Assembly: GCA_023489275.1 (NCBI GenBank)
Contig: JAMDDD010000024.1
Coordinates: 10,788-74,787 of the forward strand
From: Actinomycetota bacterium
GTDB lineage: Bacteria > Actinomycetota > Thermoleophilia > BMS3ABIN01
Length of the DNA stretch: 64,000 bases
Reading direction: 5' to 3'
The notes under the pieces were generated by a model. The model was not told the DNA's origin, ran no database searches, and saw only the letters and a program-made list of their open reading frames with translations. Each line of letters starts with the position of its first letter. The stretch's first letter is position 1. Below are positions 8,858 to 42,302 of the stretch, in pieces. Made by a program: the position numbers and the translations under genes.

Positions 8858-9097
8858 GCAACATGAATACCCGTTTTTAATAATACTTCAAACCAGTAAA
8901 ACGGATACTGGACACTTGATTCTGGACGCTGGATTAATAATCTGTATTGATTATCTGAACTGTGACAGGAATAGTCACTGAGAAAAAACAAGCGATTGGC
9001 CGGTCCGGGCGCCTCCAAAACTGCTTCCGATCTTAAACTTTTTGGGCCGCACACTGCGGCCGCCCTCAAAAAGTCCGATCCCCTTGGAAAGCCCTGT

Positions 9098-9715
9098 CTA
9101 GGAGCTTTTGCCTCCACGAAGCTGTTCAAGCAGGCCGAAGGACGCCCGGGCACGGTGACTGATGCGATTTTTTTCATCGGCAGAAAGCTCGGAAACAGTT
9201 AACTCATAACCCTCAGGGATAAAAATCGGGTCGTAGCCAAATCCAAATTCTCCATGGGGCTCGCGGGCGATCCGTCCCTCGAGAATTCCGGTGGAGCGCA
9301 GTTCCTCTCCTCCCGGAGAGACCGCGACTATCTCACAAACAAAGCGCGCCTGGCGATTTGTGTCTTCACCCAGCTCGGCCAAGAGCTTATTGACATTATC
9401 CACATCAGTGGCGTTTTCCCCCGCGTACCGCGCTGAAAATATTCCCGGCGCGCCCGCCAGCGCCGCCACTTCAATGCCGGAGTCGTCCGCCATGACCCAG
9501 GGAATGTGACCATCAAGCACGCTGGCGTGGCTGATGTACTGGTTCCTGACCGCCAGCGCCTTCAGGCGCGCATTTTCATAAAAGCTGCTGCCAGTCTCTT
9601 CGGGCAGGTTAAAGCTCTCCGGCATCGGCTCCACGCGAATACCGGCGAGGAGTGACCCGAACTCGCGGGCTTTATTGGCATTGGCGGAGGCAAGTGTGAT
9701 GAATTTCGGAATCAT
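9098..9715 (-). CDS. rdgB: RdgB/HAM1 non-canonical purine NTP pyrophosphatase
   Basis: ITLASANANKAREF N-terminus and a FGYDPIF motif; lies directly downstream of rph, the classic pairing. Confidence 0.85.
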   Translation of the reverse strand: MIPKFITLASANANKAREFGSLLAGIRVEPMPESFNLPEETGSSFYENARLKALAVRNQYISHASVLDGHIPWVMADDSGIEVAALAGAPGIFSARYAGENATDVDNVNKLLAELGEDTNRQARFVCEIVAVSPGGEELRSTGILEGRIAREPHGEFGFGYDPIFIPEGYELTVSELSADEKNRISHRARASFGLLEQLRGGKSS

Positions 9716-9799
9716 CGATAAAAAAGTTTCAGATTTTCTGGTTTCTGGTTCTTATAATTGGTTTTTAACTCGAAATCAGAAACTCAAAACCAGAAACGT
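9716..9799. repeat. AT-rich imperfect inverted repeat in the rph–rdgB intergenic region
   Basis: TTTCTGGTTTCTGGTT ... AAACTCAAAACCAGAAA arms. Confidence 0.35.
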
Positions 9800-10528
9800 T
9801 CATCTTGAGGCGGTGACTTTGAGTTGCGCGGCCGCTATCTGCTCGATGCCGGCTTGAGCCAGATCGATCAGCCGGTCGAGAGTCTCGCGGGAAAAGGGAA
9901 CCCGCTCCGCGGTCGCCTGCAGCTCTACCAGCTCTCCGGAGCCGGTCATAATGACATTCATGTCAACATCGGCGTTACAGTCCTCGACGTAGCTTAAATC
10001 AAGCATTGGCTCTCCGCCGACAATGCCGACACTGACCGCCGCGACAGAGTCGCGAAGCGGTATCTCCTTGATATAGTCCTGGTCGACCAACCGGGCGAGA
10101 GCCAAATATAAGGCAACATAAGCACCCGATACGGAAGCGCACCGGGTGCCGCCGTCGGCTTGGATGACGTCGCAATCAATCCAGACGGTGCGGTCGCCCA
10201 GAGCTTTCGTGTCGACGATACTTCGCAGGCTGCGGCCGACAAGCCGCTGGATTTCAACCGTGCGGCCTTCCTGCTTGCCGCGGACCGCTTCCCGGACCTT
10301 CCGGTCGTGAGTGGCTGCGGGGAGCATACTGTATTCAGCCGTCACCCAGCCGCCGCGCCCCTGTCCCCGCAGCCATTTGGGCACGCTGTCCTGAACGGTG
10401 GCGTTGACGATCACTTTTGTCTTGCCGGCCTCTATCAGAACGGAGCCGTCGGCCCATTCGATGAAGCCGGGCGTGAATTTTAGCGGCCTGATTTCATCCA
10501 CCGGCCGCTTGTCTATACGTTCCGCCAT
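9800..10528 (-). CDS. rph: Ribonuclease PH
   Basis: The RPLKFTPGFIEWADGSVLIEAGKTKV...GGTRCASVSGAYVAL pattern is typical of RNase PH. Confidence 0.9.
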   Translation of the reverse strand: MAERIDKRPVDEIRPLKFTPGFIEWADGSVLIEAGKTKVIVNATVQDSVPKWLRGQGRGGWVTAEYSMLPAATHDRKVREAVRGKQEGRTVEIQRLVGRSLRSIVDTKALGDRTVWIDCDVIQADGGTRCASVSGAYVALYLALARLVDQDYIKEIPLRDSVAAVSVGIVGGEPMLDLSYVEDCNADVDMNVIMTGSGELVELQATAERVPFSRETLDRLIDLAQAGIEQIAAAQLKVTASR

Positions 10529-10553
10529 CAGCTGGTCCCCCGGGAGACGCTTT

Positions 10554-11357
10554 TCATGCCACTGTCATCCTTTCCAGCTCGGGAATTTCAATCCCCCGGA
10601 CATCATCGAACGGCATTTGCAAAAACCTGGCGCCCACATCGACAAAGGCCTCCACGTTCCCGGTACACAAGAAGGAATAAGCACCCTCACGCCCGGCGGC
10701 GTTGCGGGCGCCCTTGCGTTCAAGCGTCTGCCCTGCCTGACGGGCAATCTCGCGGGCCGGATTTATCAGGGTCACATCCCTGCCAAAAACCCGCTGCAGC
10801 ATCGGTGTTACCAGCGGATAATGGGTGCATCCGAGGATGACGGTGTCGACCTCCGCCTCCTTAAGCGGATTGGCGTATCCTTTTACCGCCGCCACCATCT
10901 CCGGCGAGGAGACATCGCCCGCCTGAATCATGGAAGCCAGCTCGGGACAAGACTGAGCCACAACCTGGAGGCCCGCGTCGAGCTCGAGCAGGGCGCGCTG
11001 GTAGCTGCGGCTCGCGATTGTCGCCTCGGTGGCAAGCACGCCAATTTTTCGGTTTTGCGTCGTCTGCACGGCTGCTTCTGATTCCGGATGAACAGCGCCG
11101 ATAATCGACGCGTCCAGCCGCTCCTGCAGCCATGGCAACGCCGCCGCCGTAGCCGAGTTACAGGCCACGACCAGCAGCTTCACGTCCAGGGAAAGCAAAT
11201 GGCTGGCTATCTGGCCGGCAAAGGCCCTGATGTCGCCGATTGGCCTCGGTCCGTAAGGAAAGCGGCCGGTGTCTCCCAGATAGATGAAATCCTCCTCCGG
11301 CAGCGCCACCAGGCACTCATGAAGAACGGTCAGGCCGCCGACGCCCGAATCGAACAT
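10554..11357 (-). CDS. murI: Glutamate racemase
   Basis: FDSGVGGLTVL N-terminus and a VLGCTHYP motif. Confidence 0.9.
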   Translation of the reverse strand: MFDSGVGGLTVLHECLVALPEEDFIYLGDTGRFPYGPRPIGDIRAFAGQIASHLLSLDVKLLVVACNSATAAALPWLQERLDASIIGAVHPESEAAVQTTQNRKIGVLATEATIASRSYQRALLELDAGLQVVAQSCPELASMIQAGDVSSPEMVAAVKGYANPLKEAEVDTVILGCTHYPLVTPMLQRVFGRDVTLINPAREIARQAGQTLERKGARNAAGREGAYSFLCTGNVEAFVDVGARFLQMPFDDVRGIEIPELERMTVA

Positions 11358-23560: not shown

Positions 23561-25012
23561 TTGACCGTTGAACGGGGTAGCGAGCTTTTGCCTGCAAATA
23601 TTGCTAAATTATATTTCATGACAAGACCGGACAGACCCTCGGTAGCGCAGCAAATTGAACTTGAGATAGAAAGCCTCGCTTTCGGCGGCCGGGGCTTAGC
23701 CCGCTTAAACGGATTTGTCATCTTTGTAGAGGGTGCATTACCGGGCGACCGGGTCCTTGCGGAGATCATCAGATCTACGCGTTCGTTTGCTGAGGCCAGA
23801 ACCGTCGCTGTGATCAGCCCTTCACAGGCGCGGATTGAGCCAGAGTGCCGGCATTTTGGCGTTTGCGGCGGGTGCTCCTGGCAAACGCTCGAATATCAGA
23901 CACAGCTAAAGTTCAAGCAGCGGCAGGTTGACGACTGCCTGTCACGCATCGGGGGCGTCGATGAATACGAAATCGACACGCCCTTGGGGGCGAGCCAAAT
24001 CTGGCGTTACCGCAACAAGGTCGAGTATTCTTTCACCGGCGATGAAGGCGGACTAAAACTTGGCTTTCACTTGCCGGGTGACTGGAGGCGGGTGATGGAC
24101 GTCGAAGACTGCCTGCTTCACTCCGAAACGACCAACCGGATGCGCGATTTTATTCGTGAGTTTGCGAGCCAGAGCGGGGCCGGTGCTTACGATCAGCGCT
24201 CGGGCAAGGGCTTCTGGCGCCATCTGGTGCTGCGCGAAGCCTTTCGCACCGGCGAATTCATGGTTAACATCGTGACAGCGCCTGGCGAATTTCCGGCCGC
24301 TCGCCGGTTTGTGAACGAAATTACCTCCACTTTCCCCGGGATCGCATCGCTCCTCTGGAGCGTTAATGGGGGTCGCTCGTCTGTGGCCGCCGGTTTTCCC
24401 TATCACGTTCTCGCCGGCCGTGACCATATTTTCGAAGAGATCGGCGGACTGAAGCTCGAGGTCTCACCCTCATCCTTTATGCAGACAAACACCGGCATGG
24501 CCGAGCGCCTTTACGGGAAGTCGCTTGAATATGGCGCTCCCGGAGCTGGTGATCTCGTCTTCGACCTCTATTCCGGGATCGGATCAATCGCCCTGTCGTT
24601 CGCGCGGCACTGCCGGGAGGTGGTTGGAATCGAGATTGTCGAGGAAGCGGTCCGCGCGGCGGCAGCGAATGCGCGACTAAACAATATTGAAAATGCTTCC
24701 TTCCGGTACGGAAAGGTGAGAAGCGTACTGAAGGAGATTCTTGCGGCAGGACGCGTCAGACAGGAATATGGCAGCGGCCCGGTAGAGCTGGTTATTCTCG
24801 ACCCGCCCCGGGCAGGCGCGAGCAAGAAGGAGATTCAGCGGATCCTGGAGCTCGATCCGGACCGGATTGTTTATGTTTCCTGCAATGCCGCGACGATGGC
24901 GGCTAATGCCTCCCGGTTGAAGGAAGGTGGGTACCGGCTGGTCAAGGCGGGCTCAGTTGACATGTTTCCCCACACTCCCCACATTGAAGTCGTCGCCAGT
25001 TTTAAAAAATGA
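23561..25012 (+). CDS. rlmD: 23S rRNA (uracil-5-)-methyltransferase RlmD/RumA family (TRAM plus SAM methyltransferase)
   Basis: TRAM domain, a four-Cys cluster (C..CGGC) and a C-terminal methyltransferase fold. The track start is TTG at 23561; an alternative ATG start is at 23618. Confidence 0.85.
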   Translation: MTVERGSELLPANIAKLYFMTRPDRPSVAQQIELEIESLAFGGRGLARLNGFVIFVEGALPGDRVLAEIIRSTRSFAEARTVAVISPSQARIEPECRHFGVCGGCSWQTLEYQTQLKFKQRQVDDCLSRIGGVDEYEIDTPLGASQIWRYRNKVEYSFTGDEGGLKLGFHLPGDWRRVMDVEDCLLHSETTNRMRDFIREFASQSGAGAYDQRSGKGFWRHLVLREAFRTGEFMVNIVTAPGEFPAARRFVNEITSTFPGIASLLWSVNGGRSSVAAGFPYHVLAGRDHIFEEIGGLKLEVSPSSFMQTNTGMAERLYGKSLEYGAPGAGDLVFDLYSGIGSIALSFARHCREVVGIEIVEEAVRAAAANARLNNIENASFRYGKVRSVLKEILAAGRVRQEYGSGPVELVILDPPRAGASKKEIQRILELDPDRIVYVSCNAATMAANASRLKEGGYRLVKAGSVDMFPHTPHIEVVASFKK

Positions 25013-30079: not shown

Positions 30080-32392
30080 TCAACCACACCGTGAGAAGCC
30101 GCATGACCGGCAGAAGACGCATCCCTCACCAAATTCCAGGCTGGTGCTGCCACATTCGGGGCATTCAGGGCAATGAGCCAGCTCCGCCGACGGCCGCAGT
30201 TCCATCGATTCAATATTTCCGGCCAGTTTTGGCATTTTTTCCAGATGAACCAGTAGCGCCTGGGCGATCGCATCCGGACAGGAATTTACCTTAACACCGT
30301 CCGAGTAGCCCGGCGTGGGGCAACGGATGCCCTTCACTGACTTTACGACGGCATCTACCGCCACTCCGGATCTCAGCGCCAGCGAGATTAACCGCGCAAT
30401 GGCTTCAGATTGGGCGCCCTTGCAACCTCCCGCAAGTCCCATCGATGAGAAAACCTCGAAAAGTCCATGTTCGTCCTGGTTGATTGTGACGTAAATGTTG
30501 CCGCAGCCAGACGTCAGCTTGTGCGTCCCTCCTGTAATAAAACCTGGCCTCGGCCGCGGCTTGACCTGACCGGGAATAAATCCGTTTTTCGCCTGCTTGT
30601 TTCCGGCAATATTTAATACCTGGATCTCACGACTGCCGTCCCGGTAGATTGTGACGCCCTTGCACCCGGTGCGGTAAGCGAGCATGTAAGCCCGCTTTAC
30701 GTCGTCCGTCAAGGCGTCATGGGGAAAGTTGACGGTCTTGGAGACAGCGTTATCAGTAAACTTCTGAAAAGCAGCCTGCATGCGGATATGCCATTCGGGG
30801 CTGACATCGTGCGCGGTAACGAACAGGGATTTCATTTCATCCGGGATCTCCGGCAGATCCTTGAGGCTTCCCTTCTTGGCGATCTCTTTCATCAGCTCCT
30901 CACTGTAGTATCCGCCATCCCTGGCCATTCTCTCGAAGGAGCGATGAACTTCAACCATTTCCGTGTTATCAAGCACGTTCCTGACGTAAGAAACTGCGAA
31001 CAGGGGCTCGATACCGCTGGAACACCCGGCAATTATGCTCAGGGTGCCGGTGGGAGCAATTGTGGTGGTGGTGGCGTTGCGAACCTTCAACCCTGGCGCA
31101 GTATCATAAATGCTGCCCTCAAAATTTGGAAACGCACCCCGTTCCTCCGCCAGCTGTGCGGACTTTTTCCCGGCTCGGTCCCGGATAAACTCCATGATTT
31201 CCGCGGCGACGGTTACTGCTTCCTCCGAATTGTACGGGATACCCAGTTCTATGAGGAGGTCAGCGAATCCCATCACTCCCAGGCCAATCTTGCGATTGGC
31301 CTTGGTCTTCTGTTCAATCTCCGGCAGCGGGTAATTGTTAACATCGATGACATTGTCAAGAAAATGAACCGCTCCGTCGACGACATGGCCCAGATGCTCA
31401 TAATCGAGCTCGCCGGCAGATCCGATCATTCGGGATAGATTGATCGAGCCGAGATTACAGGATTCGAAAGGAAGGAGGGGCTGCTCGCCGCAGGGGTTGG
31501 TGCTCTCGATCTCACCAATATGAGGCGTCGGATTATCACGGTTAATCCGGTCGATGAAAATGATCCCCGGGTCTCCGTTCTTCCACGCGAGATTGACAAT
31601 CATCTCAAACACCCGCCTCGCTTCCAGGCTTTTTGATACCTTGCCCGTGCGGGGATTAACCAGATCATATTCTTCATCCCGGTCAACAGCTTCCATGAAC
31701 TCTTCCGTCAAGGCAACGGAGATGTTGAAGTTATTCAGCCTGTCGTTGCTTTGCTTGGCGGTAATAAAATCAAGGATATCGGGGTGGTCCACGCGCAGAA
31801 TCCCCATGTTGGCGCCCCGCCGCGTCCCGCCCTGTTTAATCGTTTCGGTAGCCGCATCAAACACGGTCATGAACGAGATGGGTCCGCTGGAGACTCCCTT
31901 GGTTGACAGCACCACATCATTGCTGGGGCGGATGCGGGAAAAAGAGAAACCGGTTCCCCCACCGCTCTTGTGGATCAGGGCGGTGTTCTTGATAGCGTCA
32001 AAAATACTCTCCATTGAATCGCCAATCGGGAGCACGAAACAGGCCGACAGCTGCCCCAGTTCTCTGCCGGCGTTCATCAACGTAGGCGAGTTCGGTAAAA
32101 ACTCAAGCCTGGCCATCATCCGGTAGAATTCTTCTTCCACAGCCTCAATATCAGCCTCGCGGTCATGGATCAGATCAGCCTGAGCAATGGTTGACGCCAC
32201 CCGCCGGAACATCTCGGCCGGCGTCTCGACTGGATTCCCATCTTCATCTTTTTTAAGATACCTCTTCTCCAGCACTTTCATCGCATTGGGCGATAGCTGC
32301 GGCTTTAACGGCAAAGACGATATCCGGGAGCCTTTACTGGAAGCCTGCTGGTGTTGATTGACTAACATGGAGTGTTTCCCCTTTCCAGGCAA
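30080..32392 (-). CDS. nrdJ: Adenosylcobalamin-dependent ribonucleotide reductase (class II, NrdJ) with C-terminal zinc ribbon
   Basis: 770-aa protein with the class II RNR N-terminus ([30 protein letters not shown]) and a C-terminal CPECPECG...CVFCRSCG module. Confidence 0.9.
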
Positions 32393-32491: not shown

Positions 32492-32938
32492 CTATGATAA
32501 TTTTGACAATTCACGCTGAAACTCTTCAACATCCTCAAAATGTCTGTAAACAGAGGCGAAGCGGACATAGGCGACCTTGTCCAGACTCTTTAGCTGGCTT
32601 AAAACCCGATCGCCAATCTCCGCCGACGGCACTTCCGTTTTAAATTCATTTCGTAACGCCGCCTCGACGGAATCAACAAATTTTTCCAGAGCCCCGGCAT
32701 CAACAGGACGTTTTTCACAGGCCCGCACCAGCCCCTCGAGCAGTTTGGACCGGGAAAAGACCTCCCGCTCGCCCCTTCTTTTAACCACGACCAGCGGCGC
32801 TTCTTCCACTCGTTCGTAGGTGGTAAAACGACGCTGGCAACTCAGACATTCGCGCCGGCGCCGGATCGCATCCCCGGAGTCAGTATCACGGGAATCAACC
32901 ACTTTCATCTGCATCGATTCACAAAAAGGACATTTCAC
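32492..32938 (-). CDS. nrdR: Transcriptional repressor NrdR
   Basis: Zinc ribbon (MKCPFCES...CLSCQRRFTTYERVE) plus an ATP-cone. Confidence 0.9.
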   Translation of the reverse strand: MKCPFCESMQMKVVDSRDTDSGDAIRRRRECLSCQRRFTTYERVEEAPLVVVKRRGEREVFSRSKLLEGLVRACEKRPVDAGALEKFVDSVEAALRNEFKTEVPSAEIGDRVLSQLKSLDKVAYVRFASVYRHFEDVEEFQRELSKLS

Positions 32939-33259: not shown

Positions 33260-35068
33260 CTATTGATTACGCTGCTCGCGGCGCCCTTTTTCCAGCCGTT
33301 TGGTTAGCTCCGCCGGATCCATGGCCGCCGGCTGGCAAGTTGACCCAATACATATAAATGCCATCGGCCTGTCCCGGTAGCCATAACCGGTAACTTCAAG
33401 CTCCTCGCCATGAATGTCCGGGTCCAGAATCTCCACCGAGCGAAACGGGAGGCGCGCCCGGTGTGCGGCTTTGATCATCTCCAGCGTGGGATTCGCGGCA
33501 GGAGGCCCGATGATTGTTACCCGCACCGGGGGCTCCAGCATCCGCTGTACGGCGCAGGCATAGTCAGCGGCGAAGATGCCTTTCTCTTTGTATGAGTCGC
33601 TATAGCAGGAAAGCGCCCCCCGGGCACTGTCCCCGAAACGTGGCTGGCCCGTTGTCTGGGCCAGCCTCACCAGCGCCGAAGCCGCCAGGCTATTTTCCAC
33701 GATCGGCTTTTCCCGCTTGGCAAAAAAGCCGCTCGGTCCCAGGGGCAGATTGGTGTCAAAAAAACCGCCCCTCTCTTTGTCCTCAAGGTTTGCCAGCACC
33801 CAGGATGCTGTCGAAACCGCACGGTCCAGCCACACCTCCCCGGCTCCGCTTTCAAAAGCGTCAATGCAAGCGGGAACCAGCCTGGCCGCGTCAACGAGCA
33901 AACCTGGCGCGAAAGCGTTTCCATTGAAGTAGTGGCTCGGTCCCCCCGGCTGCGTCCACATCCGGTTAAATATGAATTCAAGCGCCCCCAGCGCCAGGTC
34001 GCGGAATTCAGGATCGCCAAACACCTGAAAGGCTCTCAGGAGCGCCGAAGCTGCGACCGCGTTTGCGGAAAAATACACCGTAAAGTCAACTCGCGGCGCG
34101 GTGGTCCGGGCCCGCCCGCCGGCATCCAGCAAGTAATAATGCTCATCGGCTTCCTGACTGCCGCCAAACGCCCCGGTCTCCCGGTCCAGCAGCACCGAAT
34201 CAAGATAGCGGTAAATGTCGCGGGCGACAGATTCGTACCCCGGTTCTTCCGTCAGCAGAAAAGCATCAGCGTAAACCGCGAGCAGGGCAGCATTGTCTTC
34301 CAGGAGTTTCTCGTAATGAGGGGTGCTCCAGTCTCTTGCGGTTGAGTAGCGGAAAAAGCCGCCCTCGACCCGGTCATAGAGTCCGCCTGCGGCCATCGCG
34401 TCGAGGCTGGCCGTGAGCAGATTCGCAACTGCTTCGATATAGCCATCGGCGAGAGTCATCAAGAGGAAATTAAGCGCTGAGGGATAGGGAAATTTGGGTT
34501 CGATCCCGAAGCCGCCGCTTTCCTCGTCATAACTGTAAGCTATCATCCGGAGGACATTAGCGGCCACGGATTCATCCGGCTCGCTTCCGGAAGCGGCGAC
34601 CTCCAAATCCAGCTCCTGCCGGATCTGCCGCACCGCCTCGACCACCTTCTCCCGGTTATTGACATACAGATCGGAAAAATCAGCCAGCAAGCAGCTTAAT
34701 TGATCAGGAGACAAGTAGGTGGTGCCACCGACCGATTCGCCATCGGGAGTGAGAAAAGCAACCGTCGGCAGGCCTCCCTGGTTATACCGGCTGTTAATCT
34801 CAGGCCGCCGGTCGCTGTCTACGCGCACCGGTATAAAGTTCTCATTGATCAGGCTGATGACGCTTTCATCGGAATAGCAGGTCTCGTCCATCACGTGGCA
34901 CCAATGACACCAGGAGGCTGAAATCGCCAGCAGCACAGGCTTCCCCTGGTATTCGGATTGCTTAAACGCGTCCTCGCTCCACTCCCGCCAGTTTATCTCC
35001 CGCGCGCGGTTCGGCCGCGGGGAAAAGCGGAAAACTTGATCGCTGTCTTTTTTCTGTTTATCTTCCAC
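33260..35068 (-). CDS. Thioredoxin-domain (DUF255/YyaL-like) protein with six-hairpin glycosidase-like domain
   Basis: AISASWCHWCHVMDETCYSDESV thioredoxin-like N-terminus followed by a long alpha/alpha-toroid-like region. Confidence 0.8.
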   Translation of the reverse strand: MEDKQKKDSDQVFRFSPRPNRAREINWREWSEDAFKQSEYQGKPVLLAISASWCHWCHVMDETCYSDESVISLINENFIPVRVDSDRRPEINSRYNQGGLPTVAFLTPDGESVGGTTYLSPDQLSCLLADFSDLYVNNREKVVEAVRQIRQELDLEVAASGSEPDESVAANVLRMIAYSYDEESGGFGIEPKFPYPSALNFLLMTLADGYIEAVANLLTASLDAMAAGGLYDRVEGGFFRYSTARDWSTPHYEKLLEDNAALLAVYADAFLLTEEPGYESVARDIYRYLDSVLLDRETGAFGGSQEADEHYYLLDAGGRARTTAPRVDFTVYFSANAVAASALLRAFQVFGDPEFRDLALGALEFIFNRMWTQPGGPSHYFNGNAFAPGLLVDAARLVPACIDAFESGAGEVWLDRAVSTASWVLANLEDKERGGFFDTNLPLGPSGFFAKREKPIVENSLAASALVRLAQTTGQPRFGDSARGALSCYSDSYKEKGIFAADYACAVQRMLEPPVRVTIIGPPAANPTLEMIKAAHRARLPFRSVEILDPDIHGEELEVTGYGYRDRPMAFICIGSTCQPAAMDPAELTKRLEKGRREQRNQ

Positions 35069-35159: not shown

Positions 35160-36536
35160 ATGGAGTCTTCGCCGACAGTTGCCGCGATTTCCACGCCGCT
35201 GGGAGCGGGCGCCATCGGGATCGTGCGCATGACCGGATCTGAGGCGATCGACATCTGCGACCGCATATTTACCGGTCGACGGCCGCTCGCCGAAGCTGCC
35301 TCGCATACGCTGAATTACGGCGTCATTCTTGATCCAAAAACTAAAGAGGCAGTCGACGAAGTGCTTGTCGGCGTCATGCGGTCGCCGGCCAGTTACACGC
35401 GCGAAGATATTGTTGAAGTCAACTGCCATGGCGGTCCCGTCGTTCTGCAAAAAATACTCTCGTTTTTCCTGGATGGCGGCGCGCGGCTGGCCGGCCCCGG
35501 AGAATTTACCAGGCGCGCTTTTTTAAACGGCAGGCTGGATCTGGCGCAGGCAGAGAGCGTCGCGCAGATTATTGCCGCCAAGACCGGCGCTGGTTTGCGT
35601 GTGGCAATGTCACAGCTTGGCGGGGGGCTTTCGGAGACAATCAAGTCTCTGCGCTGGTCGATCCTGAACGTCCTGGCGGCGGTAGAGGCGGGAATCGACT
35701 TCTCGGACGAAGACATTGAGGAGCTGGACAAAAGCGAGGCGGAAGCAAGGCTGGAGCAGATCAATCAGCAGATCGGGGAACTCGTTAATACGGCATTTGC
35801 GGGCCGCGTTCTAAATCAGGGCGTCCGGACCGCGATTGTCGGTCAGCCCAATGTCGGCAAGTCCAGCCTGCTAAACGCGATGCTGATGCGAGAGAGAGCC
35901 ATAGTCACCGAGATCCCGGGCACAACCCGGGACACAATCGAAGAGGTGATAAACGTAAAAGGCATCCCGCTGCTTTTAATCGATACCGCGGGGTTACGGC
36001 CGCACGCGGACACCGTCGAGAAGATTGGCGTCGAGCGCAGCCTGAGGGCGATGAAAGAAGCGGATCTCATCCTTTGCCTTTTTGACGGCAGCCAGCAGGA
36101 GAACGATCATGACCGGGCGCTGCTGACATCTGTACCGGCGGAAAAAACCGTTTACGTAATTAATAAGTGTGACAAATTTCGTGGACGTCAACCCGTGTTT
36201 AATCTGGGCCTGCTGCCATCGCAGCCGGTAATAATCTCCGCGCTGACCCGCCAGGGTATGCGGGATTTGACGGAAAAAATCGCCGCAGCTGTCCTGGGCG
36301 GGTCTATTCCGCCTCTGGAAAACCCGATCGTGACTCAGGAGCGCCACCTCCGGCTCCTGACAGAAGCATCTTCTTTTCTGAACAGAGCAGCTCAAGGCCT
36401 GCGGGTTGGGCTTGGGGAGGAGCTGATCGCCGAGGAGCTGCGTTCGGCCCTGTCAGCCCTGGATGAAATCACCGGGGAGGAGTTCATCGACGATCTCCTC
36501 GATACTATCTTTCACGAATTCTGCATCGGCAAGTAA
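35160..36536 (+). CDS. mnmE: tRNA modification GTPase MnmE
   Basis: G-domain motifs (GQPNVGKSS, DTAG, NKCD) and the C-terminal CIGK. Confidence 0.9.
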   Translation: MESSPTVAAISTPLGAGAIGIVRMTGSEAIDICDRIFTGRRPLAEAASHTLNYGVILDPKTKEAVDEVLVGVMRSPASYTREDIVEVNCHGGPVVLQKILSFFLDGGARLAGPGEFTRRAFLNGRLDLAQAESVAQIIAAKTGAGLRVAMSQLGGGLSETIKSLRWSILNVLAAVEAGIDFSDEDIEELDKSEAEARLEQINQQIGELVNTAFAGRVLNQGVRTAIVGQPNVGKSSLLNAMLMRERAIVTEIPGTTRDTIEEVINVKGIPLLLIDTAGLRPHADTVEKIGVERSLRAMKEADLILCLFDGSQQENDHDRALLTSVPAEKTVYVINKCDKFRGRQPVFNLGLLPSQPVIISALTRQGMRDLTEKIAAAVLGGSIPPLENPIVTQERHLRLLTEASSFLNRAAQGLRVGLGEELIAEELRSALSALDEITGEEFIDDLLDTIFHEFCIGK

Positions 36537-36557
36537 ATACCGGGAGCGGCTCGTATC

Positions 36558-37616
36558 TTGCATGTAAATTCCTGTAATTCCCTCGATTTCCATGACGTTG
36601 CCGTCGTTGGCGCCGGACCGGCCGGCTGCGAAGCATCTCTTGCTGCTGCTGCTGCCGGAGCCAGCACCATTTGCCTCACGATCAACCTCGATGCCGTTGC
36701 CTTGCATCCCGCGAACCCGGTGCTGGTTGATGGAACCGGCGATCCGAGGATGCGGCTTCTGGAAGAGCTTCACGGGGCGGGCGCCGCTCTGCCAGGGCTG
36801 TTGAAGGAGCCGGGAGCATCCATCGAAAGCGGCGCCAGGACAGTGATCGACCGGCGCGTACTCGGGCTTGCCTACAAGGAACGCCTTGAGTCTGCTAACG
36901 GGCTGTCCCCAAGGCAGTCGCTGGTGACTTCGATTTCCCCTGGCAAAGGAATCTGGAATGTCGCAACCAGCCTCGGAGAAACCTTCCGGGCTGCAGCTGT
37001 TGTTGTGGCTGCGGGAACATACCTGAATGGTGTAGTCACAGCGGGAGGGGTCAGCACGCCGGGCGGAAGGCATGGCGACATCCCGGCAAATGCGCTCGCC
37101 TGCTGCATCAAAAGCCTGGGGATAGCAATGGAGCGCACCACAGCGACCAGTTATCCCCGTCTGGACTCGCGCAGTGTCGATAACGCCGGCGACGGATTGG
37201 TGCCGCCCGACGAGGCCGTTCTGGGCGAACTTTACGGCTCGGATGTCGATGTGGATGGGAACGGGGCAGCGGCTTTAAAGCAGCTGCGGCGGAGGGGCGG
37301 CTATTCCGAAGGATGGATTACCCGGTTGGGCTATACCGTGCATCACCACATTTTAACTGCTGATCAAGTTGATCCAACCCTGCAGGCTTTGCGCCAGAGC
37401 GGCCTTTTTTTTGCCGGCAAGGCCGCGGGCAGTTGCAACTATACCGAGGCAGCCGCCCTGGGCTTTGTCGCCGGAAAAAACGCGGCTGCCCTGGCCACAG
37501 GGGAAGCTGATATAAAGTTGACTACAAATCATATATTTATTACTAAGCTTTGCCGCGCGGTCTCCCGGCAGCAGTCACGGCCGGTCACTATTCGCATTCC
37601 GCCGCCCGGTTGTTAG
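36558..37616 (+). CDS. Half-length MnmG/GidA-like FAD-binding protein (paralog lacking the catalytic Cys and the C-terminal MnmE-binding domain)
   Basis: DVAVVGAGPAGCEASLAAAAAG Rossmann motif, AAGTYLNGVVTAGG and SGLFFAGKAAGSCNYTEAAALGFVAG align to MnmG blocks. MnmG's SCNP is replaced by LHPANP. The product is 352 aa against 629 aa for the true mnmG next door. Confidence 0.55.
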   Translation: MHVNSCNSLDFHDVAVVGAGPAGCEASLAAAAAGASTICLTINLDAVALHPANPVLVDGTGDPRMRLLEELHGAGAALPGLLKEPGASIESGARTVIDRRVLGLAYKERLESANGLSPRQSLVTSISPGKGIWNVATSLGETFRAAAVVVAAGTYLNGVVTAGGVSTPGGRHGDIPANALACCIKSLGIAMERTTATSYPRLDSRSVDNAGDGLVPPDEAVLGELYGSDVDVDGNGAAALKQLRRRGGYSEGWITRLGYTVHHHILTADQVDPTLQALRQSGLFFAGKAAGSCNYTEAAALGFVAGKNAAALATGEADIKLTTNHIFITKLCRAVSRQQSRPVTIRIPPPGC

Positions 37617-37631
37617 CATATTACAGATTAA

Positions 37632-39521
37632 ATGACAAACCATTGCAGCAACTCGTCAGCTTCCTCTTTTTCCGTTTTCGATGTTGCCGTCGTCGGTGGC
37701 GGACACGCCGGATGCGAAGCAGCTCTGGCGGCTGCGCGCATGGGGTGTGACACACTCCTGCTTACTGTTAACCTGGAAAAAATCGCACTGATGCCCTGCA
37801 ATCCTGCCGTGGGCGGGGTCGGCAAGGGTCAGCTGACGAGGGAAATCGACGCCCTTGGGGGCGAACAAGGGCGTAACACAGATCGGTCATACATTCAAAT
37901 GAAAATGCTCAACACCGGCAAGGGTCCGGCGGTGAGGGCGCTGCGGGCCCAAGCAGACAAAAAGGTGTATGAAGATCAAATGAAAAAAACTTTGGCGGCC
38001 GAGCCCAGCCTGAAGATACTGGAGGCAATCGTTTCGGAAATTATTGTTTCACGTGAAACAATTTCCGGCGTTAAACTGATTGATGGCAGCGTCATACCTG
38101 CAAAAGCAGTTGTTTTAACGTGCGGGACCTTTCTCCGGGGTAATCTCGTCATTGGCGATATAAAATTTCCAGGTGGCAGAATGGGAGAACCTCCCGCCAA
38201 AGATTTGTCTTTGAGCCTGATCCATTACGGGATCGAAACCGCTCGCTTTCAATCAGCAACGCCTCCTCGAATCGACGCGCGATCAATAAATCCGAACCGA
38301 ATGAAGGTCGAGCCCGGCGACCCGAAACCGGCGATGTTCTCGCCGTTTTCGACAGCGCGTGATGAAAATCAGATTCCCTGTTATTTAACGAATACGACGT
38401 CAAAGACGCATGAAGTTGTCCGGAAATATTTGCATTTATCCCCTTTGAAAACAGGCTCCGTTAGTGGAAAAGGGCCCCGTTACTGTCCATCAATTGATCG
38501 CAAGGTGATTAATTTTCCGGATCGGGACCGCCATCCCGTTTTTGTCGAGCCCGAAGGACGGCACACTAATGAAATGTACCTGCAGGGACTCACCACGAGC
38601 ATGCCGGTTTCCATTCAAGAGTCAATTATTCGCTCAATTCCGGGTTTGGAAGGAGCATGTCTGATGCGCCCGGGATATGCAGTGGAGTACGATTATATTC
38701 CTCCAAGTCAGCTTAAGCTTTCTCTTGAAACAAAAAGAATCTCCGGACTGTTCCTGGCAGGGCAAATAAATGGTACGTCAGGATACGAAGAGGCAGCCGC
38801 GCAAGGCCTGATTGCCGGGATTAACGCTGCAAAGCATATTTCCGGTAACGAGCCGCTAATCTTAAAACGCAGCCAGGCTTACATAGGCGTTCTCATCGAT
38901 GACCTGGTTACTAAGGGAATCGATGAGCCTTATCGAATGTTCACGTCACGGGCCGAATACCGGCTGCTTCTAAGGCATGACAATGCTCACCGCCGCCTGA
39001 GCGGTATCGGCAACCATCTCGGGCTCATCTCTAATCAAAAAGCAGCGATGATTGCCGAAACAGCCGCGAAAATTAACGCGATTATTAAAAGCTATTCTAC
39101 GAGAAGAATACAGCCGAACGATTCAATCAACGATTTTCTCACCTCGCTTGGCACTTCCCCGATCCACGAACCGCAAACCATGGCCCAACTACTCAGACGT
39201 CCGGAGGTCGAGATTGCCGGCTTAATCAAAGCCGTCGGTGATTCAACTCAGCTCGATGACGCCGCCTCCGCGGCGGAAACAGAAATTAAGTACGAGGGTT
39301 ATGTTCAACGTGAGATCGAAGATATAGAAAAACGGCGCGGGCTTGAAAATTCGGCGATCCCCAATGACATTTCCTATGAAGACCTGAACAGCATTTCTAT
39401 CGAGGCGAAAGAGAAGTTGGCGAAGGTGCGACCGTCGACCTTGGGGCAGGCGTCACGGATTGCCGGCGTATCTCCAGCCGATATCGCCGTCCTGTCTCTT
39501 TATCTTAAAGCATTACAATGA
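37632..39521 (+). CDS. mnmG: tRNA uridine 5-carboxymethylaminomethyl modification enzyme MnmG (GidA)
   Basis: Full-length protein with [32 protein letters not shown] and [21 protein letters not shown] blocks. Confidence 0.9.
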
Positions 39522-40225
39522 CATTGATCGATAAAACGAGTTTGAGAAAGATTCTCCTCAGGCCGCAAATTTCCTTGCTCGCCCGCTTTCTGGATCTGCT
39601 TGCTGAAGCGAATAAAAAAATTAATTTAATCGGAGCCAGCTCTTCGGAACAGATTATTGAAACTCATTTGCTGGATAGTCTGAGCCTGCTTGATTTTGAA
39701 GAGGTTAGGGATTCCCGCCAAGCAATCGATGTTGGCAGCGGCGCCGGCTTTCCCGGCATTCCCCTTGCGATTGCGCTACCCAATCTCAATTTGACCCTTC
39801 TTGATTCAAATGCGAAAAAATGCGGTTTCCTCTCTCGAGTAACCGGCATTCTGGGCCTCTCAAATGTCGAAGTCGTTTGGGAACGGGCCGAGACTGCCGG
39901 GCGCTCCCGCTTCCGCGACAATAACGATTTAGCCCTTGCCCGGGCCCTCGGCCCTCTGCCTCTGACTCTGGAATATGTTCTTCCCTTTGTCGAACCGGGC
40001 GGCCATTGCGTCCTTCAAAGGGGGCGACGTCAGACGGGGGACACCGATGTTGCCGCCGATGTGGCCTGTCTGTTTTCGGGGGAACTTGACCGTGTCACAC
40101 TCGTTAAGCCTTACCCCTCTGCGCAAAACCTGCATGTATGGGTATTTACAAAGGTGGGAAAAACACCGGCGGCCTTTCCGCGACGGCCGGGCCAGGCAAA
40201 AAAACGGCCTCTCGCAGCCTCCTGA
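39518..40225 (+). CDS. rsmG: 16S rRNA (guanine527-N7)-methyltransferase RsmG (GidB)
   Basis: [19 protein letters not shown]-binding motif; overlaps the mnmG stop. Confidence 0.85.
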
Positions 40226-40295
40226 CGCGTCCCTTTCAATTACGCTATATGGAAGCCTTCTGGCCAGGGCCGCCTGCATCTGATAAAATTTCTTC

Positions 40296-41090
40296 GTGCG
40301 GGCGAACACTTCTATTCAGGCAAGAACCGGCTTGGGAAAAACCTATGCCATCGCCAACCAAAAGGGAGGCGTTGGCAAGACCACCACTTGCGTCAACACC
40401 GCCGTGTGTCTGGCGGAAGCAGGCGCAACCGTCCTTTTGGTTGATATCGATCCTCAATGTAATGCAACCCATGGAATCGGCATCCATGATGTTCCCGGCC
40501 CTACCATCTACGATGTTCTTGTTAACGGGGCCAGGATCGAGTCGGCCATAATTGGAACCCAAATTCCGCATCTTTTCCTGGTTCCATCTACTCCGCATCT
40601 GGCGGGCGCCGAGGTTGAGCTGCCTGAGCTCTCGGACCGCGAATTCATTCTTTCTGGCAAGCTCCGCTCCATGGCGGCCGATTTCGATTATTTGTTTATT
40701 GATTGCCCGCCCTCTCTGAGCCTGCTGACCCTAAACGGCCTCGTGGCAGCGGACAAGGTTATTATCCCGATCCAATGCGAATATTTCGCCCTTGAGGGAC
40801 TGGGCCAACTGCTATCAACGGTGGAAGCGGTACGCGGGAATCTTAATCCCAGTCTGCAGATTGCCGGTTTGCTGATGACTATGTATGACGCTCGTACCAA
40901 TCTATCAACCCAAGTGGTAGAACAGGTGCGGTCTCACTTTCCAGAGTTGACTTATAAAACCATAATACCGCGTAATGTTCGGTTGAGCGAAGCGCCGAGC
41001 CATGGCATGCCGATCTCCCGTTACGATCCTACTTGTGCCGGCTCTGACGCTTATTTTGATTTAGCATCGGAGGTTGTCGAACGTGAATGA
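40296..41090 (+). CDS. parA: Chromosome partitioning ATPase ParA/Soj
   Basis: Deviant Walker A (KGGVGKTT). GTG start at 40296, or TTG at 40332. Confidence 0.85.
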   Translation: MRANTSIQARTGLGKTYAIANQKGGVGKTTTCVNTAVCLAEAGATVLLVDIDPQCNATHGIGIHDVPGPTIYDVLVNGARIESAIIGTQIPHLFLVPSTPHLAGAEVELPELSDREFILSGKLRSMAADFDYLFIDCPPSLSLLTLNGLVAADKVIIPIQCEYFALEGLGQLLSTVEAVRGNLNPSLQIAGLLMTMYDARTNLSTQVVEQVRSHFPELTYKTIIPRNVRLSEAPSHGMPISRYDPTCAGSDAYFDLASEVVERE

Positions 41091-41967
41091 CAGCAAGGGG
41101 CTCGGGCGCGGCCTGGAGGCGCTGTTTAAGAATACAAATAATCAAGTTGGTCAATTGCCACCGGGCGATACCGGGTCGCTGGACTTATACCAAGAATTAT
41201 CCATTGATCAAATTAAGGGCAATCCAAAGCAGCCGCGTACGATCTTCGATGACGCCGCCCTCGCCGAGCTTGCTGATTCGCTGAAGGCGGTTGGCCTCGT
41301 GCAGCCCGTTGTTGTCCGCCGGCGGGGCAAAGAATTTGAAATTGTCGCTGGCGAGCGCCGTTGGCGCGCCGCTCGCCTTGCCGGGCTAAAAAAGATCCCG
41401 GCCATAATCCGTGAGGCAGGCGACGCCGAATCACTGGAGCTGGCTCTGATTGAAAACCTGAGCCGGGAAGACCTGAATCCAATCGATACGGCTCGGGCTT
41501 ATGCCAGCCTGCAAGAGGATTTTGGCATCACCCAGGAAGTGCTTGCCGGCAAGCTCGGCCGGAGCCGGTCTGCCGTCGCTAATACGATGAGGCTGCTGGA
41601 CCTTCCGGATGAAGTTCAGACATTGATCGAGAATGGCAAGCTCTCCGAAGGTCACGGGCGGGCGCTGCTGTCAATCCCCGACCGGCTGCGTCAGCGCCAG
41701 CTGGCCGCCAAGGCTGCTGCCAAGAGCATGACTGTCAGGCAACTTGAAGAGCAGGCAAAAAAAGAAAGCTCGCGGCGCCGGCGAAACGATTCGCGGCCGG
41801 CTCCCGTCAGCCAGGAACTCATGGACGAGGCCACTGATGCTTTATATTCTGCCTTCCGCCTGCCGGTAAAGGTTCGTTGGGCTAGCAAGGGAGGCCGGGC
41901 AGAGCTGGAGTTTGCCAGCTCTGCTGATCTTCGCCGGATCATCGGAGTGCTGGAGAAAGACCTCTGA
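41074..41967 (+). CDS. parB: Chromosome partitioning protein ParB/Spo0J
   Basis: GLGRGLEALF N-terminus, ParB box (VVRRRGKEFEIVAGERRWRAA) and an HTH. Confidence 0.85.
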   Translation: MSNVNDSKGLGRGLEALFKNTNNQVGQLPPGDTGSLDLYQELSIDQIKGNPKQPRTIFDDAALAELADSLKAVGLVQPVVVRRRGKEFEIVAGERRWRAARLAGLKKIPAIIREAGDAESLELALIENLSREDLNPIDTARAYASLQEDFGITQEVLAGKLGRSRSAVANTMRLLDLPDEVQTLIENGKLSEGHGRALLSIPDRLRQRQLAAKAAAKSMTVRQLEEQAKKESSRRRRNDSRPAPVSQELMDEATDALYSAFRLPVKVRWASKGGRAELEFASSADLRRIIGVLEKDL

Positions 41968-42302
41968 TGACGCTGGGGGGGAACCAGGCTTCGCTGAAGG
42001 AGATTATTTCTCCTTATCTTGAGATAGCGGGCATATTCTCGGTTGCTTTAGCAACAACCGAAGGGCTGCTGGTTTCGGTAGCCGGCGAAAATGAGGCGCG
42101 GATGGAAGCGGTTGCCGCGCTGGCCGCCGGATCTTTAACGAATATCGCTGCCCTCGCGGCGGAACTTGGCAACCACCTGCGAATCATGGGCTTTGATTTT
42201 CATCGTCAGGGCCTGATAATCGCGCCACTAACCCGGGAAGTATTTTTGATTCTGCTGGGAAGCGAAGACATCCTGGAATTAATCAAACCCTCCGGCATCT
42301 AG
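41967..42302 (+). CDS. Roadblock/LC7 (MglB-like) domain protein
   Basis: 111-aa alpha/beta pattern typical of Roadblock. Its ATG overlaps the parB TGA (TGATGA), which implies translational coupling. Confidence 0.4.
   Translation: MTLGGNQASLKEIISPYLEIAGIFSVALATTEGLLVSVAGENEARMEAVAALAAGSLTNIAALAAELGNHLRIMGFDFHRQGLIIAPLTREVFLILLGSEDILELIKPSGI

Follow-up and report, generated by a model that had tools for sequence, protein, structure and literature searches.

MnmG (GidA) is the FAD/NADH-dependent partner of MnmE in the synthesis of cmnm5U34/nm5U34. The two proteins are treated as a universal two-protein system, whose mechanism is still debated with respect to the methylene relay, the need for three cysteines and the asymmetric behaviour of the MnmG dimer. 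In the window, by which we mean the whole stretch of 64,000 nucleotides that was analysed, a gene for a second, much shorter MnmG-like protein lies between mnmE and mnmG. We asked whether this gene is a decaying duplicate or a functional one and, if functional, what its product may do beside MnmE and MnmG.

An MnmG-like gene lies between mnmE and mnmG

The first-pass annotation had reported a 352-amino-acid open reading frame directly before a bona fide mnmG, and we confirmed its coordinates, start, stop and length. The locus is laid out as follows:

35160..36536, + strand: mnmE, a complete GTPase of 458 amino acids and the first gene of the operon (Pfam TrmE_N, MnmE_helical and MMR_HSR1)
36543..36546, + strand: GGAG, a Shine-Dalgarno-like motif 11 nt 5' of the TTG of the short gene, read from the sequence
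36558..37616, + strand: the short MnmG paralog, 352 amino acids, TTG start and TAG stop, identified by sequence search, profile and model evidence
37632..39521, + strand: canonical full-length mnmG, 629 amino acids (Pfam GIDA, GIDA_C_1st and SAM_GIDA_C)
39518..40225, + strand: rsmG (gidB), overlapping the mnmG stop by 4 nt (Pfam GidB, 5.7e-43)
40296-41090, + strand: parA, assigned by Pfam on homologous loci and by tblastn synteny
41074-41967, + strand: parB, which together with parA closes the conserved cluster on its downstream side, assigned by Pfam on homologous loci and by tblastn synteny

The intergenic gaps are 21 nt between mnmE and the short gene and 15 nt between the short gene and mnmG, and the packing of mnmE, the short gene, mnmG and rsmG is so tight that we expect the four to be co-transcribed. 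A promoter and terminator scan gave no enrichment and no promoter-like or terminator-like site in either gap flanking the short gene. The short gene and mnmG share a reading frame, in which a TAG and a TAA separate them. The mnmE translation has the C-terminal FCIGK motif (it ends ...FHEFCIGK), and the neighbouring MnmG scores 795.3 bits against TIGR00136 (cutoff 524.85) and has the MPCNP and GPRYCPS motifs, both catalytic cysteines and the C-terminal helical domains. Among 30 further open reading frames scanned elsewhere in the window, we found no MnmC, MnmA or folate genes. The short protein itself is identical to NCBI MCL6106622.1, which is annotated 'FAD-dependent oxidoreductase'.

The short protein has the GidA fold and lacks most functional parts of MnmG

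The short protein belongs to the GIDA (GidA-MnmG-TrmFO) fold superfamily: it matches the Pfam GIDA profile (PF01134) far above chance (1.3e-39; 136.8 bits, cutoff 22.1), and it has a GR2-type FAD Rossmann fold with MnmG-type insertions. Its AF2 model has a pLDDT of 84.6 and a pTM of 0.88. It falls outside MnmG proper, scoring 128.4 bits against TIGR00136 where the cutoff is 524.85. BLASTP aligned it to the adjacent MnmG with 34% identity over residues 13-208 (2e-22) and 35% over residues 243-328 (5e-12); with only 34% identity between the neighbours, the duplication is ancient.

We found that the protein consists of the FAD domain and insertion domain 1, from which one loop is missing, followed by half of insertion domain 2 and a short tail. 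The three MnmG blocks that the first-pass annotation had quoted are present, as VVGAGPAGCEASLAAAAAG (residues 16-34), AAGTYLNG (151-158) and GLFFAGKAAGSCNYTEAAALGFVAG (282-306), and the catalytic cysteine of SCNP is replaced as it had reported: ALMPCNP of MnmG aligns with ALHPANP, so that Cys47 corresponds to Ala52. Two of its statements were too sweeping. The insertion domain, said to be lost, is missing only in part, since insertion domain 1 is kept except for one 8-residue loop and about half of insertion domain 2 is absent. Likewise, the helical domain is not lost entirely: its first ~35 residues are kept, up to RPVTIR (the PYRMFTSR equivalent), and the remainder is absent. Judged by profile and alignment, the description of the gene as a truncated MnmG/GidA paralog without the catalytic cysteine or the C-terminal domain is correct.

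Residues were mapped in 54 family members against E. coli MnmG numbering, and a separate alignment of 23 sequences was used for invariant columns. The regions that matter for function are:

36594..36659, + strand: Rossmann beta-alpha-beta dinucleotide-binding motif DVAVVGAGPAGCEASLAAAAAG, residues 13-34 (alignment and residue map)
36702..36719, + strand: LHPANP, the equivalent of (M)SCNP in MnmG, residues 49-54 (alignment and residue map)
37182..37208, + strand: variable linker replacing E. coli MnmG 214-289/299, residues ~209-217 (profile alignment to PDB MnmG chains)
37401..37475, + strand: second FAD motif GLFFAGKAAGSCNYTEAAALGFVAG, residues 282-306 (alignment and residue map)
37578..37613, + strand: C-terminal tail RPVTIRIPPPGC, residues 341-352 (alignments and residue map)

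The residues expected to bind FAD are kept. In the Rossmann motif of the family, G18, G20, G23 and E25 are invariant and P21 stands in place of the MnmG His, and across the 54 members the FAD motif positions G13, G15, E20, G156/T157, G369, G373 and E379 (E. coli numbering) are invariant or nearly so. The K56 equivalent is Arg in 54/54, R427 is kept in all 54 and R432 in 46; in the tail, R341, T344 and R346 correspond to R427, T430 and R432 of MnmG. The protein terminates six residues past the R432 equivalent, and Gly-Cys forms its last two residues, as in 44/54 family members.

Most other functional residues of MnmG are gone. The position of Cys47, which is Cys in 17/17 canonical MnmG proteins, is Ala or Gly in 54/54 family members (C47 kept in 0/54), and N48, G52/G53, T199 and P202 are lost as well. 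The missing segment 214-289 comprises the MnmG-specific motif 1, R275, Cys277, K283 and R286; the poorly conserved stretch that follows in E. coli MnmG, up to ~299, also has no counterpart. The loop deleted from insertion domain 1 is the KGPAV loop (83-90), which lies within the R82-V92 stretch that contacts MnmE (PMC12397908), and the family has deleted or altered most positions at which MnmG touches MnmE in structures 9hip/9hiq. No Pfam match to GIDA_C_1st (PF21680) or SAM_GIDA_C (PF13932) was found in the short protein. The family is acidic (median pI 5.6, net charge -6) where the cognate MnmG proteins are basic (pI 8.7, +7), which argues against independent tRNA binding. Taken from the residue map, the loss of nearly all residues for MnmG catalysis, tRNA binding and MnmE binding argues against the protein acting by itself as a tRNA enzyme.

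The family has also acquired residues of its own. Nine sites are switched, that is, they are invariant in the family and differ from an invariant MnmG residue, and several of them lie in flavin motifs (P21, R288, A290 and H263). Within the second FAD motif, Q370, N372, T375 and G376 of MnmG are replaced by R288, A290, C293 and N294, with Cys at position 293 in 44/54 members. The replacements in the flavin pocket are H16 to Pro, Q370 to Arg, N372 to Ala, Y345 to His and T375 to Cys. W133, W253, D62 and R119 are invariant residues found in this family only.

The short gene is conserved and under purifying selection

The first-pass annotation had considered a decaying partial duplicate, and the homologs speak against it. 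We recovered ~54 intact homologs of 342-410 amino acids, and 45 clusters at 90% identity (349-410 amino acids) show 42-93% identity over their full length. At 50% identity, ~17 clusters are found among 1.84 billion representatives, and we therefore regard the family as small but coherent. The gene order mnmE-short gene-mnmG-rsmG-parA-parB is present in every recovered Thermoleophilia-type locus that covers the flanks, with identical synteny in about 16 distinct loci. As the ortholog check that had been proposed required, the gene is conserved in the related loci with neither frameshift nor absence. A truncated copy in locus L019 was considered as a decayed gene and rejected: it is an N run inside an intact gene of which both ends are present, including ...RPVTVRIDDETGC.

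Substitution rates agree with this. In the window's lineage the short gene has a dN/dS of 0.36-0.38, and in a second lineage it has 0.19-0.20; the values are 0.06-0.19 for mnmG and 0.10-0.28 for rsmG. The closest pairs place the short gene near rsmG, and its dN/dS is 2-3 times as high as the value for mnmG. In amino-acid divergence the short gene roughly matches the functional rsmG, and the 23-sequence alignment contains 63 invariant columns. A decaying or pseudogenised partial mnmG duplicate, or an assembly or annotation artefact, still open by chance, is therefore very improbable: the gene evolves 2-3 times faster than mnmG and has suffered large internal and C-terminal deletions, but its length and termini are conserved in homologs that have diverged to 42% identity, purifying selection acts in two independent lineages at a divergence like that of rsmG, the model is confident, the sole apparent truncation is an N run, and the duplication is ancient. 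From these results, we conclude that the short gene is almost certainly real, functional and a member of a conserved family.

Other Actinomycetota carry mnmG paralogs in the same slot

Other Actinomycetota metagenome-assembled genomes (MAGs) also contain mnmG paralogs between mnmE and mnmG, in full-length (592 amino acids), medium (~406-480) and short (~325-382) forms. P0293 (592 amino acids), P0226 (473), P0212 (354) and P0073 (376), as well as a further short example of 363 amino acids, occupy this slot, and the four named proteins have the FAD motifs, like the window protein. The full-length paralogs retain MPCNS and GPKYCPS, each with its cysteine, and the medium forms lack both; as in the window protein, the C47 and C277 motifs are gone in all but the full-length forms. 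Derived motifs are common to the window protein and the same-slot paralogs, namely GEI.S for GE(P/Y)PA and (I/M)TR for (M/I)RP. These paralogs differ from the window protein in that they are only 27-31% identical to it, are mostly basic (pI 9.1-9.7 in group B) and have other deletion boundaries; moreover, they lack the RPVTIR...GC tail and Cys293, both of which the window protein has. P0282 (476 amino acids, both cysteines kept) was considered as an intermediate form and rejected as probably a broken full-length paralog, because its contig, L047, is full of frameshifts and dnaA, dnaN, yidC and mnmE are also split there.

In a neighbour-joining tree, the short forms are nested in the medium forms and these in the full-length paralogs (bootstrap 88% and 77%), and all paralogs split from canonical MnmG with a bootstrap of 94%, a value that long-branch attraction may have affected. 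An Actinomycetota paralog clade without group C received a bootstrap of 3%, and the link in the tree between the Thermoleophilia-type family and the other paralogs could be long-branch attraction. The short protein lies between mnmE and canonical mnmG and on the paralog side of the split, as the same-slot paralogs do. On these sequence comparisons, we conclude that deep-branching Actinomycetota have a wider set of tandem mnmG paralogs, of which the short protein is one branch. Our search of the literature turned up no relevant work on short GidA/MnmG paralogs or on a duplication of mnmG in Actinobacteria, and we found no describing paper or curated model for the same-slot paralogs.

Possible roles of the short protein

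As a member of a group of extra mnmG copies, the short protein probably assists the known enzyme pair rather than being a dying duplicate. We tentatively favour the idea that the short protein is an auxiliary, non-catalytic (or only co-catalytic) flavoprotein partner of MnmE-MnmG, which would act within the wobble-uridine (xm5U34) machinery. In favour of this idea we count the conservation and selection of the gene, the tight operon, the pattern of kept and lost residues, the acidic charge, the occupation of the same slot in other lineages and the known asymmetry of MnmG. The starting point would be a dimer that is already asymmetric: MnmG binds one tRNA per dimer (PMC4027165), and in the alpha2beta2 complex FAD and MnmE are bound by only one MnmG protomer (PMC12397908). 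In the likeliest arrangement, the short protein would pair with full-length MnmG to give a heterodimer in which one protomer works and the other is reduced, and the conserved tail of the short protein (R341, T344, R346 and the terminal Gly-Cys) may be placed close to the entrance of a flavin pocket. Several points count against a partner of this kind. Pseudo-subunits often let cofactor motifs drift, and the invariant FAD motifs, together with the invariant flavin-pocket replacements, look more like a remodelled than a dead active site; the near-invariant C-terminal cysteine suggests chemistry; and the cognate MnmG and MnmE appear to need no further component.

It is possible that the protein is instead a stand-alone flavoenzyme with a new function, in which the FAD site has been rebuilt and new thiols are provided by Cys293, at the position of an MnmG active-site Thr/Ser, and by Cys352 on a flexible tail, as in high-Mr thioredoxin reductase or MerA with their C-terminal redox arms. 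Such an enzyme might carry out a later step of xm5U34 maturation, serve MnmG in redox or flavin reduction, or modify another RNA or a small molecule. The FAD motifs, invariant in 54/54, the nine switched sites, the family-only invariant residues and the presence of Cys293 and of the terminal Gly-Cys in 44/54 each are consistent with this idea, as is the precedent of TrmFO and RlmFO, which shows that GidA-fold proteins can gain new RNA targets (PMC4081110). However, the thiols are not universal: the Gly-Cys ending is absent from 10/54 members, five divergent members that were inspected one by one (P0059, P0060, P0062, P0064 and P0065) also lack Cys293, although P0059 is still in the same slot, and the same-slot short paralogs of groups B and C have neither. 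In addition, the protein is acidic and has no recognisable RNA-binding domain, no second substrate-related gene is conserved nearby, and a gene that sits directly beside mnmG in every lineage would more typically encode a subunit than an independent enzyme. A radical-SAM gene after parB in low-GC loci was considered as an MnmL/YhcC-type partner and rejected, as it encodes the lipoyl synthase LipA.

More doubtful is a hitherto unrecognised third component of the wobble-uridine machinery of deep-branching Actinomycetota, an FAD-bound half-MnmG whose flexible C-terminal RPVTIR-x3-Gly-Cys arm would deliver a thiol into its own flavin pocket or that of full-length MnmG. The arm would parallel the FCIGK tail of MnmE, which enters the MnmG pocket, and it might provide one of the three catalytic cysteines, stand in for one, or lead to a U34 product of different chemistry.

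We consider a decoy or negative regulator improbable. In that role an acidic, catalytically dead look-alike would tune U34 modification by forming inactive heterodimers with MnmG, or by occupying MnmE or the basic face that binds tRNA. The loss of all catalytic residues with retention of the fold, the charge opposite to that of MnmG and the co-expression from one operon that the 15-21 nt gaps suggest would suit such a function. Nevertheless, constitutive co-transcription at a fixed stoichiometry would be unusual for a regulator; the protein has no regulatory domain and has lost most of the elements that contact MnmE, and the group B paralogs are basic.

A second MnmG copy that has been stripped down step by step and kept in the operon across long evolutionary distances amounts to a natural experiment, which reveals the parts of MnmG that one protomer can do without. 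Pairing of the short protein with MnmG would support a half-of-sites model of the dimer; if the short protein is an enzyme of its own, it would represent a third activity of the GidA fold besides those of MnmG and TrmFO/RlmFO. For annotation it matters that such proteins are called 'FAD-dependent oxidoreductase' or are wrongly labelled 'MnmG' or 'tRNA uridine 5-carboxymethylaminomethyl modification enzyme'.

Comparison with known systems

The short protein is most readily compared with MnmG itself (TIGR00136; PDB 3ces, 2zxi, 3cp8 and 9hip), with which it shares the domain order (FAD, insertion 1, insertion 2), the FAD motifs, K56 (as Arg), R427, T430, R432 and the operon. It differs in length (352 versus ~629 amino acids), in the absence of Cys47, Cys277 and motif 1, in a helical domain that ends at ~432, in its acidic rather than basic charge, and in its own invariant residues and Gly-Cys C-terminus.

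TrmFO and RlmFO (TIGR00137; PDB 3g5q), the 'small Gid' folate/FAD-dependent m5U54 tRNA and m5U1939 rRNA methyltransferases, are likewise GidA-fold proteins that are shorter than MnmG and lack the MnmE-binding helical domain. TrmFO has two catalytic cysteines, one of them at the C47 equivalent, and an insertion domain of its own that carries the nucleophile. The short protein has neither, with Ala at the equivalent of the first cysteine. It scored 36.8 bits against TIGR00137 (cutoff 428.65) and 39.4 against NF003739 (cutoff 262), over residues 254-336 only; the similarity is limited to the last FAD motif, and the Foldseek TM score is poor (0.55).

TTHA1897 of Thermus thermophilus (PDB 2cul, 232 amino acids) is a stand-alone, heavily truncated GidA-like FAD domain of unknown function. 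The short protein resembles it only at the Rossmann motif (profile residues 11-51, E 5e-9) and not over the ~230-residue domain, and TTHA1897 lacks any part of insertion domains 1 and 2 as well as the RPVTIR...GC tail, and is not known to be linked to mnmE or mnmG. The two proteins belong to different families.

Catalytically degenerate partners are established in tRNA modification, as with ADAT3 and ADAT2, Trm6 and Trm61, and Trm82 and Trm8. These pairs have been proven biochemically, whereas we infer the partnership of the short protein from gene order, residue loss and selection. The proposed course would be the same as in pairs of the ADAT3/ADAT2 type, in which a duplicate loses its catalytic residues and selection keeps the copy as the obligatory partner of the active one.

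The short gene is intact, tightly operon-linked and conserved

The 352-aa paralog of MnmG (GidA) encoded between mnmE and mnmG, here called the short gene, is arranged with its neighbors in the window as follows.

35160-36536 (+): mnmE, ending 21 nt before the short gene
36558-37616 (+): short gene, 352 aa, with a TTG start in the ORF listing
37632-39521 (+): mnmG, 629 aa, beginning 15 nt after the short gene

A GGAG motif is located 11 nt 5' of the TTG start, and no alternative in-frame start preserves the first beta-strand. Downstream, mnmG and rsmG overlap by 4 nt and are followed by parA and parB. The short ORF and mnmG share a frame; a read-through fusion of the two is excluded, because two stop codons (TAG, then TAA) separate them. 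The NCBI record of the protein is MCL6106622.1, 'FAD-dependent oxidoreductase [Actinobacteria bacterium]'. Two long antisense ORFs over the gene, at 36453-37073 (-, 206 aa) and 36872-37141 (-, 89 aa), are most likely high-GC artefacts.

The first-pass annotation had read this 352-aa ORF as a partial MnmG paralog. All of the sequence blocks that it quoted were found, and the assignment was borne out: the short protein matches Pfam GIDA in two stretches (1.3e-39), and BLASTP aligns it to the neighboring MnmG with 34% identity at residues 13-208 and 35% at 243-328. Because identity to the neighbor is this low, we conclude that the duplication is old rather than recent. Against the NCBIfam model for MnmG (TIGR00136), the short protein scored 128 bits, far under the 525-bit cutoff; the product of the neighboring mnmG scored 795 bits.

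A search of 5.8 billion proteins yielded 45 clusters of 349-410 aa that are 42-93% identical across the full length, the next-best matches being full-length MnmG proteins (E ~1e-30). An exhaustive profile search of 1.84 billion representatives recovered ~17 family clusters at 50% identity, and among species-representative genomes ~12 MAGs labelled Thermoleophilia or Actinomycetes have the short gene. In every locus that covers the flanks, the gene order is a thioredoxin-domain gene (-), mnmE, the short gene, mnmG, rsmG, parA, parB and a Robl_LC7 gene. The sole apparent truncation, in locus L019, is really a run of N within the gene (5900-6003 of JAJZQT010000001.1), a masked stretch or scaffold gap that mimics one.

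dN/dS (Nei-Gojobori) in the window lineage (window locus, L037, L006) and in a second lineage (L003, L010, L013)
Short gene: window lineage 0.36-0.38; second lineage 0.19-0.20
mnmG: window lineage 0.17-0.19; second lineage 0.06
rsmG: window lineage 0.22-0.28; second lineage 0.10
mnmE: window lineage 0.07-0.14; second lineage 0.08-0.11

At greater distances, amino-acid identity of the short protein (49-55%) is on par with that of RsmG (48-54%). The suggestion that the gene is a decaying partial duplicate is thus rejected: it is intact in relatives, keeps the same gene order and has a dN/dS of 0.19-0.38, so that relatives and substitution rates together clearly favor a functional gene. These data demonstrate that the short gene is functional and tightly linked to its operon, and that it is a member of a conserved family rather than a decaying copy. 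One divergent member, P0065 (MEW6019995.1), is labelled 'Pseudomonadota bacterium'; because its contig is very short (2.8 kb), this name probably reflects an error of binning or labelling, and is no evidence for occurrence beyond Actinomycetota.

The short protein lacks elements that MnmG requires

We aligned the family profile to solved MnmG chains, using the MnmG domain limits of PMC12397908. Family residues 11-213 correspond to E. coli MnmG 5-213, and 213-351 to 290-432. The FAD domain is kept. The first-pass annotation held that the insertion domain and the entire helical domain were lost; each loss is partial. About half of insertion domain 2 is indeed gone, but insertion domain 1 is kept except for an eight-residue loop (E. 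coli ILNASKGP), which sits within R82-V92, an MnmE-contacting stretch of MnmG (PMC12397908). Likewise, everything beyond MnmG residue 432 is absent, but the helical domain keeps its initial ~35 residues, as far as RPVTIR, the equivalent of PYRMFTSR. The missing part of insertion domain 2 is E. coli 214-289, with MnmG-specific motif 1 and its residues R275, C277, K283 and R286. With a 23-sequence alignment as input, AF2 produced a confident model (pLDDT 84.6, pTM 0.88), which matched MnmG chains in Foldseek with TM 0.75-0.84.

We then located the counterparts of MnmG residues of experimental importance (Table S3 of PMC12397908; E. coli numbering) in 54 members of the family and in 17 canonical MnmG proteins. 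The family keeps G13, G15, E20, D40, P49, D100, G156/T157, R204, E306, R338, Y341, G369, G373, Y377 and E379, together with R427 (54/54), T430 and R432 (46/54). Catalytic C47 is Ala or Gly in all 54, confirming the reported loss of this cysteine, and N48, G52/G53, T199, P202 and the whole C277 motif are lost as well. K56 is kept as an invariant Arg; Y308 and N310 are lost, their positions being variable, and T375 is Cys in 44 of the 54 (Cys293 in the window protein). Nine family-invariant positions differ from the residue invariant in MnmG, including H16 (P21 in the short protein), Y345 (H263), Q370 (R288) and N372 (A290), and 37 more, such as W133, W253, D62 and P79, are conserved in the family only. 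A C-terminal Gly-Cys, six residues past the R432 equivalent, ends 44/54 proteins; the ten without it include five divergent members (P0059, P0060, P0062, P0064, P0065) in which Cys293 is missing too. P0059 adjoins mnmG, directly upstream. With a median pI of 5.6 and a net charge of -6, family proteins are acidic (the window protein has pI 6.75), and cognate MnmG is basic (pI 8.7, net charge +7). Together, these results show that the short protein retains the FAD motifs and lacks the elements with which MnmG carries out catalysis and binds tRNA and MnmE.

Other Actinomycetota carry paralogs in the same slot

The exhaustive profile search also found other short GidA-like proteins, only ~27-31% identical to the window protein. 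All such paralogs with readable context sit between mnmE and canonical mnmG, and the source names of their carriers are all Actinomycetota; the MAGs outside the window's lineage are mostly low-GC.

Paralogs between mnmE and mnmG
L039:603-1694: P0071, 363 aa
L041:7001-8065, also L042: P0212, 354 aa
L043:7001-8422, also L044: P0226, 473 aa, medium
L045, L046: P0293, 592 aa, full-length
L048:7001-8131: P0073, 376 aa

Except on the short L039 contig, the gene order is dnaN-dnaA, then rpmH-rnpA-yidD-yidC-jag-mnmE-[paralog]-mnmG-rsmG(-parA-parB). A COG survey found MnmG in 0/74 Actinobacteria genomes (PMC5954106), so that retention of mnmE and mnmG in this phylum is itself unusual.

Alignment of the paralogs revealed a graded series of domain loss: full-length forms retain MPCNS and GPKYCPS, in forms of 406-480 aa both Cys residues are gone, as is most of the helical domain, and forms of 325-382 aa additionally lack part of insertion domain 2. 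In a neighbor-joining tree (321 columns, 200 bootstraps), support was 100% for the window family, 100% for short group B, 88% for group B with the medium forms, 77% when the full-length paralogs were added, and 94% for the separation of canonical MnmG from all paralogs. Placement of the window family among the other paralogs is uncertain and may be affected by long-branch attraction. The derived motifs that the paralogs share in the alignment (GEI.S replacing GE(P/Y)PA; (I/M)TR replacing (M/I)RP) would fit one ancient duplication.

In L045/L046 (GCA_028698215.1), a tandem pair of full-length mnmG genes (7001-8779 and 8792-10621) lies behind mnmE. P0293, the first of the two, is a member of the paralog lineage; it keeps MPCNS and has no Pfam GIDA_C_1st match, and its close relatives P0278, P0255 and P0260 retain GPKYCPS. 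P0293 may represent a second active isozyme of MnmG. In L047 (GCA_034520345.1, JAXHNQ010000012.1), each of dnaA, dnaN, yidC, mnmE and the mnmG paralog is fragmented, which points to a frameshift-rich assembly; its 476-aa 'MnmG', P0282, is probably an artefact.

Other genes of the window

23561-25012 (+): TRAM domain and tRNA/rRNA (uracil-5)-methyltransferase, RlmD/TrmA type
30080-32392 (-): ribonucleotide reductase large chain with TSCPD domain and Cys-rich C-terminal end
32492-32938 (-): NrdR
33260-35068 (-): 602-aa protein with N-terminal thioredoxin/DsbH-like domain, divergent from mnmE
41967-42302 (+): 111-aa Roadblock/LC7-type gene starting at the parB stop (Pfam Robl_LC7 on homologs)

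The RlmD/TrmA-type gene shows that SAM-dependent m5U enzymes are present in the organism; the window ORFs scanned included no TrmFO, MnmC or MnmA. Related MAGs likewise have the ribonucleotide reductase-NrdR pair upstream of their mnmE cluster, and the thioredoxin/DsbH-like gene occupies the same place in all Thermoleophilia-type loci with that flank (52-98% identity). The Robl_LC7 gene follows parB in nearly all Thermoleophilia-type loci reaching that far (no match in L004) and is absent from low-GC loci. In the window lineage, the mnmE...parB cluster (35160-41967) is detached from dnaA-rpmH-rnpA-yidC-jag and lies beside nrdR and nrdJ; in low-GC Actinomycetota (L041, L043, L046, L048) it is still within the origin-proximal cluster.

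A possible role beside MnmE and MnmG

From these results, we infer that the short protein is an auxiliary flavoprotein of the MnmE-MnmG system, and not a tRNA enzyme by itself. The stand-alone enzyme that the first-pass annotation offered as an alternative to decay is still plausible, and is the main rival explanation: an active enzyme whose site has been remodelled and which would employ Cys293, the C-terminal Cys or both. Such an enzyme would fit the invariance in the family of both the FAD motifs and the switched flavin-pocket residues; however, divergent family members, one of which is confirmed to occupy the same slot, lack the two cysteines, as do all other same-slot paralogs.

For an auxiliary flavoprotein, the most economical model would be that it pairs with full-length MnmG. 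The MnmG dimer binds one tRNA (PMC4027165), and in the alpha2beta2 complex FAD is held only by the MnmE-binding protomer (PMC12397908). With MnmG dimers asymmetric already, a duplicated protomer freed from catalysis could shed domains stepwise, which is the pattern observed across lineages. The retained equivalents of R427, T430 and R432 belong to a segment that, in MnmG, touches both MnmE and tRNA where the pocket opens (PMC12397908). This natural domain-loss series offers a direct test of how MnmG asymmetry and cysteine chemistry are currently modelled.

Relation to known proteins

Databases name the family either generically, 'FAD-dependent oxidoreductase', or mistakenly, 'MnmG'; it is described by no curated NCBIfam model and in none of the papers found. 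By fold, the short protein is a member of the GIDA superfamily. It differs from MnmG proper in score, in both Cys residues, in motif 1 and in the C-terminal domains, and from TrmFO in score and Cys residues, and it is not a 2cul-type small protein. It represents an undescribed, architecture-reduced MnmG paralog family, which is a fixed part of the mnmE-mnmG operon in deep-branching Actinomycetota. Although both fold and pathway are familiar, one would not expect a system otherwise made of two components to include a conserved third gene.
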